Positions 1 to 7,349 of a stretch of DNA of 13,645 bases are shown here, piece by piece. A program made the translations under genes and the position numbers. Source of the DNA: Candidatus Heimdallarchaeota archaeon (GTDB lineage Archaea > Asgardarchaeota > Heimdallarchaeia > Heimdallarchaeales > Heimdallarchaeaceae); the NCBI GenBank assembly GCA_030668875.1, contig DAOVER010000070.1, positions 1-13,645 of the forward strand, read 5' to 3'. Each line of letters opens with the position of its first letter. The stretch's first letter is position 1. The notes under the pieces are model-generated. The model did not search any database and was not told where the DNA came from. It saw nothing but the letters and a program-made list of their open reading frames with translations.

Positions 1-141
1 AACGCATTAAATTATATACTTATTCCAAAATTAAAGGCAGCTGCAACTTTTATTGCAAGCACACTTGAGGAACAAGAAAGAGAAACATTTTCTAGACTTA
101 AGAGAGTAAAAGCAATTTTGGAAGCAAAAAAGGAACAATAG
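1..141 (+). CDS. atpD: A/V-type ATP synthase subunit D, C-terminal part (5' end outside window)
   Basis: Not in the ORF track. Frame 1 translates to NALNYILIPKLKAAATFIASTLEEQERETFSRLKRVKAILEAKKEQ*, matching the conserved subunit D C-terminus (NAL..IP.L......L.E.ERE.F.RLK..K). Confidence 0.9.
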   Translation, partial: NALNYILIPKLKAAATFIASTLEEQERETFSRLKRVKAILEAKKEQ

Positions 142-385: not shown

Positions 386-1306
386 ATGGCAATTACAGAT
401 TGGTTCGATAACGTATTTCCAGATACTATGGATTCAGGTCTTAAGATGTTAATATATCTACTAATAATATTTTTAGTTTTAAGTGCAATGGCAGTAGCCA
501 TTTCAACAAAGGTCTACAAGAAAAAAGACGCGCCAACTTTGCTAGACATGGATATGGAAACGGATCGGCCCGTGCCATCTGATATCGTTCCAGCAGAAAG
601 GATAGCTATTTTAAAAATTGAGAAAGCTAAGTTTTTAGCAGCACAACGTGCATTATCAGATGCTCACAAAAAGAAAGAAATAGGTGAAAACATATTCACA
701 CGATTATCTGTAAGATACACATCAGATGTAAAGAAAATTGAAGATGAAATTGAGAAAACTGCAAGAGAAGCAGAAGTATCCCAATTAGAACAAGAACTAA
801 AGAAAATGCAAGGGGATTATCTCAGTAAAATTAAGGGAGAAGAGAAAATAGAAACTCCTACCCCTATTCCAACAACTGCTCCCCCAGCTCCTCCAACCAA
901 ACCTGTAAAGGAAAAGAAGGTTAAGGAAAAGAAAGTTAAGAAGGAGAAAAAGGGAAAAAGAGTAACTGTTGCTCCTCCAACACCACCAATGCCAACCGCA
1001 CCCACACAAAGCGGCGTAGCACCACCAAGTCCGCCAATGCCACCATCAATTGGAAAAACTCCACCCCCAACAGCAATTCCAACACCACCAATGCCAACCG
1101 CACCTAAGTCTGGAGCAGGAGCACCCGCAATTCCAGCACCTAGTATGCCAACACCCAAACCACCGGCACCTTCAGTAGCACCATCCCCAGCCCAAGAAGG
1201 AGGGGAAGGGGATTTGTTCGCAAAGAGCACTTCAATTGCAGCACTGCGCAAAGAAATGTTGAAGGAATTAGATCGTCTTAAAAAATTCATGAGTGAACAA
1301 CAATAA
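386..1306 (+). CDS. Single-pass membrane protein: helical hairpin/coiled coil, Lys-rich patch, Pro-rich region, C-terminal amphipathic helix (function unknown)
   Basis: 306-aa ORF. Hydrophobic segment LKMLIYLLIIFLVLSAMAVAIS followed by KVYKKK (positive-inside), then KEKKVKEKKVKKEKKGKR, repeated PPxPPMP motifs and a terminal SIAALRKEMLKELDRLKKF helix. Confidence 0.85.
   Translation: MAITDWFDNVFPDTMDSGLKMLIYLLIIFLVLSAMAVAISTKVYKKKDAPTLLDMDMETDRPVPSDIVPAERIAILKIEKAKFLAAQRALSDAHKKKEIGENIFTRLSVRYTSDVKKIEDEIEKTAREAEVSQLEQELKKMQGDYLSKIKGEEKIETPTPIPTTAPPAPPTKPVKEKKVKEKKVKKEKKGKRVTVAPPTPPMPTAPTQSGVAPPSPPMPPSIGKTPPPTAIPTPPMPTAPKSGAGAPAIPAPSMPTPKPPAPSVAPSPAQEGGEGDLFAKSTSIAALRKEMLKELDRLKKFMSEQQ
976..1104 (+). 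repeat. Exact 27-bp intragenic repeat (976-1002 and 1078-1104) encoding PTPPMPTAP
   Basis: TCCAACACCACCAATGCCAACCGCACC is present twice, 102 bp apart and in frame. Confidence 0.9.
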
Positions 1307-1456
1307 TTTCACTTTTAGCATATTAAAAACGAGAGGAAATATTTCAAATTAAAACTCTCAACTCATTTCTATTTTATTTTCATTAACTGTCTTTCTTAAT
1401 ACAAAAGATTTTACAAGTAATTATTTCTAATGTTATTTAGAGTAAGTGATGTTGAA

Positions 1457-2155
1457 ATGACTGAGAAGATTGATAATTCGAAGATAAATGCAGCGGTAAG
1501 AGTTGCTAAAGAGTTCATCTATGATGATTTTACTGTTGGAATAGGAACGGGCAGCACTGTAAAATACTTCATTCAAGCTCTTTCTGAACTAGTTGACAAA
1601 GATGAATTAAACATCCTCTGTATTCCTTCATCCTTAGAAAGTCAGATTGAATTAGCGAAGGTAGGGTTACCAACAGGATCGTTGATTGAAGAACCAGAAT
1701 TGGACATTTATGTAGATGGAGCAGACATAATTACGAAGGATTTTGTACTTATAAAAGGTGTAGGTGGAGCTTTGACAATGGAAAAAATTATGGCACGAGC
1801 ATCCCAAGAATTTATTGTTATAGCAGATTACTCTAAATTTCTCCTAGAACTAAATAGCTTTCCTGTTCCAATTGAGGTGCTTCCTCAGACCATAAATACC
1901 ATAATTAGACCCATTTTTGATTTGGGTGGTGAATTTAAATTACGATATGGGGCAGGTAAAGTTGGACCAGTTATTTCTGATAATGGGAATGTAATTGGAG
2001 ACGTTCACTTCAAGGACATATATGATCCTTGTGTAATTGAAAAAAAATTAACATTAATCCCTGGAGTAGTTGAAAACGGCATTTTTCCAGATGATGCCGA
2101 TAGAATAGTTATTGGACACCCAACTTCCTCTGATGTAGTCTTCACGAGATCTTAA
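1457..2155 (+). CDS. rpiA: Ribose-5-phosphate isomerase A
   Basis: Motifs GIGTGST, DGAD, KGxGGAL..EK, PIEV, DNGN and GVVENGIF. Start placed at ATG 1457, downstream of an SD-like GTGAT, rather than at the ORF-track 1430. Confidence 0.93.
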   Translation: MTEKIDNSKINAAVRVAKEFIYDDFTVGIGTGSTVKYFIQALSELVDKDELNILCIPSSLESQIELAKVGLPTGSLIEEPELDIYVDGADIITKDFVLIKGVGGALTMEKIMARASQEFIVIADYSKFLLELNSFPVPIEVLPQTINTIIRPIFDLGGEFKLRYGAGKVGPVISDNGNVIGDVHFKDIYDPCVIEKKLTLIPGVVENGIFPDDADRIVIGHPTSSDVVFTRS

Positions 2156-6679: not shown

Positions 6680-7009
6680 TTACATTTCGATGTCAATACC
6701 TAAAGCCATCTTGATTAATGCACGAACTTTATCCTCGGCACTATCATATTTTGCTTTCTTTCCAGGGACTTCAACGATAACAGGGTAGGGATGAATGCTT
6801 ATTCTTCTTATAACATCAACATTTGCTTTTGCTACTTCTTCAGTTATAATCAGAACGGCTAACTCAGGATCATCTGCAAGAGAACGCAAAATAGAACCAG
6901 ATTTGTCAGGTTCTTCGGTGTACACCTCTGATATTCCAGCTAATTTAAAGCCCATAGATGTTTCTTCATCGCCTACACTTGCGATTTTTGTTCTTTGAGG
7001 AGTACTCAT
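6680..7009 (-). CDS. atpF: A/V-type ATP synthase subunit F
   Basis: KIASVGDEETSMGFKLAGI, LAVLIITEEVA and YPVIVEVPGK motifs. ATG at 7009 is preceded by a GGTGAT SD (7014-7019). Confidence 0.93.
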   Translation of the reverse strand: MSTPQRTKIASVGDEETSMGFKLAGISEVYTEEPDKSGSILRSLADDPELAVLIITEEVAKANVDVIRRISIHPYPVIVEVPGKKAKYDSAEDKVRALIKMALGIDIEM

Positions 7010-7028
7010 TGGAATCACCGCCAATATT

Positions 7029-7349
7029 TTACATTACTTCTTCTAGGATGAAGTCGATTGCTTTTTTCTCTTGTTTTTTTGCTTTAGCCTTTAACTCATT
7101 TTGTTCTTCTTCGTATGAATTAAGCATTTTGACATATTCCTTTTCGACTCTATCTTTTACACCAGACAAAATTTTAGTAGCTTTCTCTTTAGCTTGAATT
7201 TCAGTATCTCGAATTTTCAAAACTGCTTTCTTCTCTGCTTCCATCAAAGCATTCTGTTTAGCTGTTTCGGCTTTTTTGATATTTTGTTCGCACTCTCTTT
7301 CTGTTTCTCTTATAGTTTTTAGAAAGTCAACGCTCATAGTAAAGACCAT
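7029..7349 (-). CDS. atpH: A/V-type ATP synthase peripheral stalk subunit H (G)
   Basis: 106-aa charged coiled coil (L..IRETE.E.E..I..A...A....A....A) ending in the typical KKAIDFILEEV. It lies directly upstream of atpF. Confidence 0.75.
   Translation of the reverse strand: MVFTMSVDFLKTIRETERECEQNIKKAETAKQNALMEAEKKAVLKIRDTEIQAKEKATKILSGVKDRVEKEYVKMLNSYEEEQNELKAKAKKQEKKAIDFILEEVM

Follow-up and report, generated by a model that had tools for sequence, protein, structure and literature searches.

What would a membrane protein of an Asgard archaeon hold with a short, charged amphipathic helix at the end of a long proline-rich arm? The question is raised by a gene at positions 386–1306 of a 13,645-nucleotide stretch of DNA from a Candidatus Heimdallarchaeota archaeon (the window), which is the start of contig C2 in an assembly of 3.23 Mb in 99 contigs with 92% completeness. 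An earlier sequence-only reading had proposed an actin-assembly adaptor with the logic of WASP, VASP or ActA, composed of a membrane anchor, a basic lipid-binding region, a polyproline tract and a WH2-like end. On the evidence of profile searches, the gene is the Heimdallarchaeaceae form of a pan-Asgard family that is characterised by a disordered arm and a C-terminal helix (the end helix), and its product is a candidate membrane tether for the actin system.

The end-helix family and its three heads

At E ≤ 0.01, a profile of the last 33 residues, which comprise the end helix, found the family in 328 of 399 Asgard genomes, and in most of these it had a single match. The window gene was the sole carrier of the helix in its own genome (E 4e-19), and members elsewhere were found with E values between 1e-9 and 1e-19 per genome. 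The architecture was checked in at least 30 members, and in these a disordered arm precedes the end helix, which forms the very C-terminus. Source names read 'hypothetical protein' throughout. A second profile covering amino acids (aa) 1–158 of the window protein detected one copy in 28 of the 29 genomes of its own family. It also picked up relatives, with E values of 1e-10 to 1e-14, in further families of the same order and class as well as in two other classes. Almost all of the distant relatives share the layout of membrane helix, hairpin, disordered arm and end helix; two records (P0087 and P0092) terminate ahead of the end helix. Among 1.84 billion representative proteins, the head profile reached only 14 clusters at E ≤ 0.001, and a feature search of the ESM Atlas returned no informative cluster.

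The window protein has 83 homologues with lengths of 228–338 aa, the closest of which carry the source labels Heimdallarchaeota or Heimdallarchaeaceae. No Pfam domain was found in any of the 83. Given these homologues, the single copy in nearly all genomes of its own family and the end helix shared across Asgard genomes, the open frame is more than a chance one. The family is undescribed and nearly pan-Asgard. Its heads vary, its arm is disordered and in most cases rich in proline, and the amphipathic helix at the C-terminus is almost invariant. The window gene adds to it a membrane-anchored form with a hairpin, which is near-universal and single-copy in the Heimdallarchaeaceae.

The heads fall into three types, namely a soluble coiled coil, a membrane helix followed by a hairpin, and a polytopic membrane domain. 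Soluble members of approx. 205–290 aa were found in Lokiarchaeota-labelled genomes (e.g. UCC20321.1), in Odinarchaeum yellowstonii LCB_4 (WEU40329.1, OdinLCB4_007640) and in two closed genomes (4.4 and 6.0 Mb) of a second Loki-type family. They start with a helix ~50 residues long, and they also have a short helix with the sequence 'ASTLFSLLSGG'. Their arm carries GPPK-type proline repeats, a near-invariant LPPAPKLPP and an [ST]FAKRP motif, and it leads to the invariant tail GGLSSLRDEMLxELNRLKKIMRG. The C-terminal helix is homologous to that of the window protein, both forms have a disordered arm with an [ST/L]-F-A-K motif before the helix, and they differ in the head and in the PxPxMP repeats, which are the window protein's own. 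In the polytopic form, present in one Heimdallarchaeial genus (locus L121, genome G065), arm and end helix follow a membrane domain of ~400 aa in a protein of 570 aa. Some genomes of this genus (G073 and G064) have two such genes about 2 kb apart. Weak second matches to the end-helix profile (E ~1e-3) in one Loki-type genus (L164–L167) do not belong to the family; they come from an unrelated zinc-ribbon protein of ~155 aa. The helix-like stretch is internal in these proteins and reads SLRDEMLTELDYLK or SLRDEMLTELDYLKDLI.

An AlphaFold2 model of the window protein was built with 24 homologues (segments in Table 1). Hydropathy peaks at 2.9 over aa 21–39, in the single membrane helix. Since the net charge of the flank before this helix is -4 and KVYKKK comes after it, the C-terminus should be cytoplasmic according to the positive-inside rule, with the acidic N-terminal tail outside and KVYKKK inside. 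Behind the hairpin, residues 152–276 were modelled as disordered. This arm of ~120 residues contains the motif KTPPPTAIPTPPMPT, no proline run longer than three, and four PxPxMP repeats starting at aa 198, 214, 232 and 250, to which both copies of an exact 27-bp repeat belong. Two PTAP motifs (992–1003 and 1094–1105) fall within that duplication. The end helix was modelled from residue 277 to 305 (29 residues) with a predicted local distance difference test score (pLDDT) of 64–78. The topology and hairpin proposed from the letters alone agree with hydropathy, charge pattern and model, and the 21-residue patch with 13 K/R, the four proline repeats and the terminal helix ending in LKK (1232–1303) were all found in place.

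Conservation among the homologues is uneven. In the alignment of the 24 sequences, all from Heimdallarchaeaceae, conservation is limited to anchor, hairpin and end helix; above all residues 276–302 are invariant or nearly so, and the end helix itself is invariant. The arm differs in length and sequence. Its basic patch, PTAP motifs and PxPxMP repeats are confined to close relatives: PTAP is exchanged in many orthologues (PTMP, PTPI, PTS), the first PxPxMP units are lost as well, and the Lys-rich patch is absent or reduced in many members (P0046, P0066, P0069–P0083). In distant members, the arm is Glu-rich (Wukongarchaeota) or of mixed composition. Accordingly, neither the basic lipid-binding region nor the polyproline tract that had been proposed holds up as a conserved feature of the family. 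The end helix, on the other hand, persists across the distant members with L287, M291, L295 and K299 invariant and with R288, E290, L292, E294, R297 and L298 conserved to at least 90%. Position 300, the last K of the LKK, is occupied by K, A, T, G, R or E, and position 301 by F, Y, L or I.

Hydrophobic residues of the end helix (I284, L287, M291, L295, L298 and M302) follow each other with a spacing of 3-4-4-3-4 and therefore form a single straight stripe. This stripe is edged by the conserved R/E/E/R/K residues, the basic ones on one flank and the acidic ones on the other. A straight hydrophobic stripe with flanking charges suits docking on the surface or in a groove of another protein better than it suits a helix lying in the plane of the membrane.

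Actin genes beside the family and the proposed tether

The host has three genes with a Pfam Actin match (449, 434 and 198 bits) and two genes with gelsolin domains. The actin-family genes are located at C78:7349–8458 (minus strand), C16:2176–3288 (plus strand) and C29:32203–33435 (minus strand), the gelsolin-domain genes at C23:32657–33175 and C80:1371–1889. Both the Asgard affiliation, which is of the Heimdallarchaeaceae type, and the actin presupposed by the sequence-only reading were confirmed. Profilin could not be judged in this way: the Pfam model PF00235 matched nothing in the genome at a threshold as lax as E ≤ 10, but in every control genome it likewise lacked a match above its cut-off and is hence uninformative.

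An independent connection to actin was observed in a Lokiarchaeota-labelled family, which comprises 135 species genomes and from which 25 loci of seven genera were examined. An actin-family gene lies 0.15–2.0 kb downstream of the soluble family gene and on the same strand in 23 of the 25 loci, and one of the two exceptional loci stops right past an intervening PIG-L gene. In L120, the family gene occupies 1492–2181 and the actin paralogue 171–1292, both on the minus strand. The adjacent actin reaches ~296–301 bits with Pfam Actin and is 42–44% identical to the host actin. Open reading frames (ORFs) of 20 Loki-type loci (±5 kb) were clustered, and only the family gene, the actin and a small winged helix-turn-helix (wHTH)-like gene were universal (20/20), all of them co-oriented. 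The wHTH-like gene (~112–126 aa) comes after the divergent actin paralogue (~373 aa) in L120–L154. A PIG-L-type deacetylase is located between family gene and actin in nine of the 20 loci, and upstream genes are common to at most 12.

Because the soluble relatives adjoin an actin gene in these genomes, the anchored window protein is a candidate membrane-actin link. We assign a probability of roughly 40% to the reading that it is a membrane tether and that its end helix works for the actin system. The hairpin is probably a dimerisation or assembly element that would join at least two chains at the inner side of the membrane, and the arm would act as a flexible spacer. The end helix would be a straight docking helix for a conserved partner in the cytosol, and an actin-family protein or a regulator of actin is the most plausible one. 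The Heimdallarchaeial protein would then hold this partner, or filaments assembled from it, at the membrane. Recruitment of profilin-actin by the proline arm is possible too, though the proline content is no conserved family feature.

ParR, arcadin-2 and WH2 peptides insert a terminal helix into the cleft of the actin fold. Like arcadin-2 and ParR, the family presents a short terminal helix on a flexible tail, and its gene lies beside an actin-family gene, here only in the Loki-type family. Arcadin-2 and ParR are soluble, however, and their binding has been demonstrated, whereas the window protein is membrane-anchored and is likened to them by layout and not by sequence.

Several observations weigh against a service to actin. 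The actin next to the family gene is a paralogue, and the main Lokiactin-type gene (~441–445 bits) is found elsewhere in those genomes. The adjacency is restricted to one family. It is absent from the window genome, from Odinarchaeum and from all Heimdall-type loci examined, and in the two closed genomes of the second Loki-type family the distance between family gene and actin is 43 kb and 273 kb. Confined in this manner, the linkage may be inherited synteny from a single event. Furthermore, two Asgard families possess actin and have no detectable end helix; the distributions of the family and of actin thus do not strictly coincide, for which the sensitivity of the profile may be to blame. The missing WH2 match described below counts against the actin tether as well. 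Finally, the closest solved-structure matches of the end helix are constructs of the GCN4 zipper, and these fit self-association as well as docking.

According to this alternative, the end helix is a coiled-coil module for self-association, like a leucine zipper or the tetramerisation helix of Ena/VASP, and the protein is an oligomeric scaffold anchored in the membrane. Clients would then bind elsewhere, e.g. to short motifs in the arm, which would be compatible with a role in the actin system. A search of the PDB with the full family profile found nothing, and with the end helix alone it found only the GCN4 constructs (NEVARLKKL..., E 0.006–0.1). One of 20 end peptides touched Pfam VASP_tetra with E 0.095. 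The helix is also long, uninterrupted and amphipathic, with a pLDDT of 88 in the soluble form. The matches to GCN4 and VASP_tetra are all below significance, however, and in our own reading the 3-4-4-3-4 spacing (~3.6 residues per turn) suits a straight surface helix better than a heptad zipper. In addition, the charged residues on the exposed side hardly vary from class to class, which is more typical of a fixed interface with a different protein. We regard self-association as the function of the helix as a live but fairly unlikely alternative. Ena/VASP proteins resemble the window protein in their order of head, Pro-rich region and C-terminal helix, and the end helix of the window protein is charged and coiled-coil-like; but apart from the sub-threshold VASP_tetra match there is no significant similarity, and Pfam scans of the window protein and its relatives gave no match to EVH1/WH1.

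A broader version of the actin tether, which we consider somewhat unlikely, would make the entire family a missing class of Asgard actin-system proteins. Its end helix would attach to an actin-family protein, be it in the cleft of the monomer or on the side of the filament, and the arm would bring in profilin-actin or other readers of the SH3/EVH1 kind. In the Heimdallarchaeaceae, the head would have been swapped for a membrane anchor, resulting in a direct membrane-actin tether or in an assembly factor localised at the membrane. Only profilins and gelsolins are named as Asgard actin regulators in the literature (PMC12050087; 10.1101/2025.11.30.690169), which reports no factor for attaching Asgard actin filaments to the membrane or for promoting filament assembly at that site. 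Cultured Asgard cells nonetheless make actin-filled protrusions. With its presence in about four fifths of the Asgard genomes, its link to actin in one lineage and its membrane anchor in the Heimdallarchaeaceae, the family offers a concrete candidate for such a factor. If it were indeed this missing class, a membrane-actin tether would exist in close archaeal relatives of eukaryotes. If the partner is not actin, the family is still among the most conserved uncharacterised proteins specific to Asgard archaea, and it still exemplifies a portable docking helix that was moved between soluble and membrane-bound heads.

WH2 and MIM1 resemblances of the end helix

The WH2 consensus consists of an amphipathic helix, LLxxIxxG, and of LKK[VT] after a non-helical linker. 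WH2 factors (WASP, WAVE and WIP; PF02205) share with the window protein a proline-rich tract and, after it, a short amphipathic helix that has L-K-K close to the C-terminus, and both occur in hosts with eukaryote-like actin. In the literal form of this reading, the protein is a nucleation-promoting factor like WASP, VASP or ActA, in which the basic patch binds lipids, the polyproline binds profilin-actin and the helix with LKK binds G-actin. Besides the overall architecture, the conserved L298-K299 and the actin gene adjacent in one family are consistent with it. So are the GPPK repeats and LPPAPKLPP of the soluble homologues, which resemble the VASP peptide GAGGGPPPAPPLPAAQ; this peptide is weakly bound by a Heimdall profilin (PMC8410842).

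Still, no match to Pfam WH2 was obtained for the last 45 aa of the window protein, 20 diverse end peptides and 23 full-length soluble homologues (nominal E ≤ 10), nor in a six-frame scan of the genome at E ≤ 1. HMMER filters discard most matches above ~E 0.1, so that weak WH2 matches between 0.1 and 10 could escape. The motif itself fits poorly, since K300 is variable and the fourth residue, [VT] in the consensus, is a bulky hydrophobic one. No break separates helix and LKK either: in the models of both the window protein and the soluble form, LKK is embedded in one continuous helix. The basic patch is not conserved, the arm is Glu-rich or mixed in distant members, and the longest proline run of the window protein is short. 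WH2-like motifs described so far in Asgard archaea sit between gelsolin domains (PMC9433394; 10.1101/2025.11.30.690169). Compared with WH2 factors, the window protein furthermore lacks C or A regions and has a membrane anchor in the place of their regulatory head.

Membership in the WH2 family is hence not supported, although a WH2-like mode of working remains compatible with the data, and the literal nucleation-promoting factor appears very improbable. What survives of the proposed actin-assembly adaptor is the membrane tether with its arm and end helix, together with the actin adjacency in the Lokiarchaeota-labelled family. The conservation of the LKK and of the proline repeats in orthologues, which had been suggested as a check, gave a mixed result: L298 and K299 are kept, whereas K300 and the PxPxMP repeats are not. 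The helix-to-LKK spacing had been described as shorter than in canonical WH2; counted from the first hydrophobic residue and set against the consensus above, it is longer in our own reading.

The same helix was compared with MIM1 motifs, which would recruit Vps4's MIT domain (ESCRT) to the membrane. Two ESCRT-III genes of the host (C91:40906–41520 and 41535–42188) end in Leu-rich MIM1-like helices, and the Vps4 MIT domain is encoded at C91:42314–42562. Asgard subunits of the Vps2/24/46 type are described as having such C-terminal helices (PMC7240154). As in these tails, the helix of the window protein stands behind a flexible linker. Its last 16 residues align with a host ESCRT-III tail (ELDRLKKFMSE versus ELESLKKKMSE), and hhalign selects exactly this stretch, but with a probability of 2%. 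Among 3817 ORFs, only the window protein and the two ESCRT-III proteins contained a match to a regular expression, which was, however, composed post hoc, after the three tails had been seen. Ranking of the C-termini by BLOSUM scores gave a mixed picture; with the second ESCRT-III tail as query, the window protein was outside the top 12. Residues ahead of the motif are acidic in the ESCRT tails (EEDTSDLExEL) but basic in the end helix (LRKEML). An unbiased hidden Markov model (HMM) of 63 distinct Heimdallarchaeia ESCRT-III tails scored both host ESCRT-III proteins with 31–33 bits, and the window protein was missing among all of its 926 matches at E ≤ 1000. On the basis of this HMM, the MIM1 reading was largely rejected and is scarcely probable. 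A complex prediction of the host Vps4 MIT domain with the end peptide gave an ipSAE of 0.01, a value that taken alone speaks neither for nor against binding. An ESCRT-III core (Pfam Snf7) was not found: when the family profile was aligned to the two host ESCRT-III proteins with hhalign, no core alignment resulted (probability 2%).

Apart from the ESCRT proteins, the best match to the host ESCRT-III tail in the BLOSUM scan of C-termini was a 568-aa ORF (C31:29292–30998, minus strand) that ends in DLKNELKELKDKIQEEDDEE, a possibly MIM1-like tail by its sequence.

Neighbouring genes and other partners

A tether of the ZipA or TonB kind could also serve a partner that is unrelated to actin; small GTPases, division proteins, the A/V-ATPase and the ribosome are examples. 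ZipA of gamma-proteobacteria shows the same layout, in which a membrane helix at the N-terminus is followed by a charged segment and a long, flexible P-rich linker in the cytoplasm, and one JGI record of the family was automatically labelled ZipA. The likeness concerns architecture only and not homology. ZipA ends in a globular FtsZ-binding domain, whereas the window protein ends in a single 29-residue helix, with no Pfam domain found, and has in addition a conserved hairpin beside the membrane. Each of the two would tether a cytoskeletal protein to the membrane.

The genes next to the family gene are relevant to this alternative, as they vary with the lineage. In the window, the gene is flanked by the genes of A/V-type ATPase subunit D (atpD) and ribose-5-phosphate isomerase A (rpiA). 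Elsewhere, an Arf-like GTPase adjoins it in one Heimdallarchaeial family, a divergent Ras-family GTPase together with an ICMT-family methyltransferase in one Loki-type family, and an Rce1-like CAAX protease in another (small-GTPase-related neighbour loci: L126, L131, L158 and L021). An ATP-synt_D gene is found in the equivalent position in the relatives L005 and L006, where the order atpD-gene-rpiA is repeated. Across lineages only rpiA recurs as a neighbour, namely in L004–L006 and, from other classes, in L020, L026 and L128. It encodes a metabolic enzyme, its orientation varies, and no functional meaning was seen in the adjacency.

The hairpin was considered in the same context. A fold search with the model returned generic helical hairpins with Z scores of 8–9.7. 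The top matches were the ESCRT-I core, the cytoplasmic tail of Asgard ribophorin I (OST1) and CdvA (Z 9.3–9.7), tied with unrelated proteins. CdvA (9s9g_A) was superposed with Z 9.3 and a root-mean-square deviation of 1.6 Å over 71 residues, a Z score in the range of any helical hairpin. Crenarchaeal CdvA shares the logic of membrane binding, helical hairpin, linker and terminal recruiting peptide, but the window protein matches neither Pfam CdvA (PF18822, E ≤ 10) nor Vps23_core, and Snf7 and the ESCRT-tail profile do not match it either. The fold scores are too low to mean more than 'helical hairpin', and a tether for a partner other than actin is regarded as quite unlikely.

Table 1. Coordinates of the gene, its segments and its two neighbours in the window.
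Feature	Position	Strand	Details
A/V-type ATPase subunit D gene, 3' end	1–141	+	Frame ends in TAG at 139–141; upstream neighbour
Whole gene	386–1306	+	Open frame of 306 codons; predicted 306-aa single-pass membrane protein; 83 homologues
N-terminal membrane helix	434–523	+	aa 17–46, hydrophobic core 20–42; AlphaFold2 helix 17–46
Helical hairpin, predicted cytoplasmic	590–838	+	aa 69–95 and 101–151, 'K-E-I-[GS]-E' turn; AlphaFold2 pLDDT 85–89; many invariant columns
Disordered arm	842–1210	+	aa 153–275, 31% Pro, variable length; AlphaFold2 pLDDT <50
Lys-rich patch	899–961	+	aa 172–192, 13 K/R in 21 residues; lineage-specific
Exact 27-bp repeat, two copies	976–1002 and 1078–1104	+	Each encodes PTPPMPTAP
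End helix	1211–1300	+	aa 276–305, DLFAKSTS + IAALRKEMLKELDRLKKFM; family core LRxEMLxELxRLK
Ribose-5-phosphate isomerase A gene (rpiA)	1430–2155	+	Pfam Rib_5-P_isom_A 1.7e-53; downstream neighbour

Pfam scans of the protein, its parts and distant relatives produced sub-threshold noise only, i.e. DUF6377, an OAR motif on 'SIAALR', GvpG, SHOCT and Vps23_core, and a CCDC53 match in the Odin member was dismissed as noise of the same kind. Elsewhere in the host genome, an ORF of 312 aa (C82:27839–28153, plus strand) matched Pfam CdvA weakly and below the cut-off (E 0.004, 18 bits).

The spacer between atpD and the gene (168–318) contains the unit tgttacatatcacagttcatcactttttaagctcagat twice, at approx. 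168–205 and 244–281, about 38 bp apart. The A/V-ATPase genes of the window do not lie together: the plus-strand gene of subunit D ends at 141 and subunit F is encoded at 6680–7024 on the minus strand. Near the latter lies a 106-aa helical ORF (7029–7349, minus strand) that resembles subunits H/G. In the relatives L005 and L006, A/V-ATPase subunit A begins ~8 kb further on.

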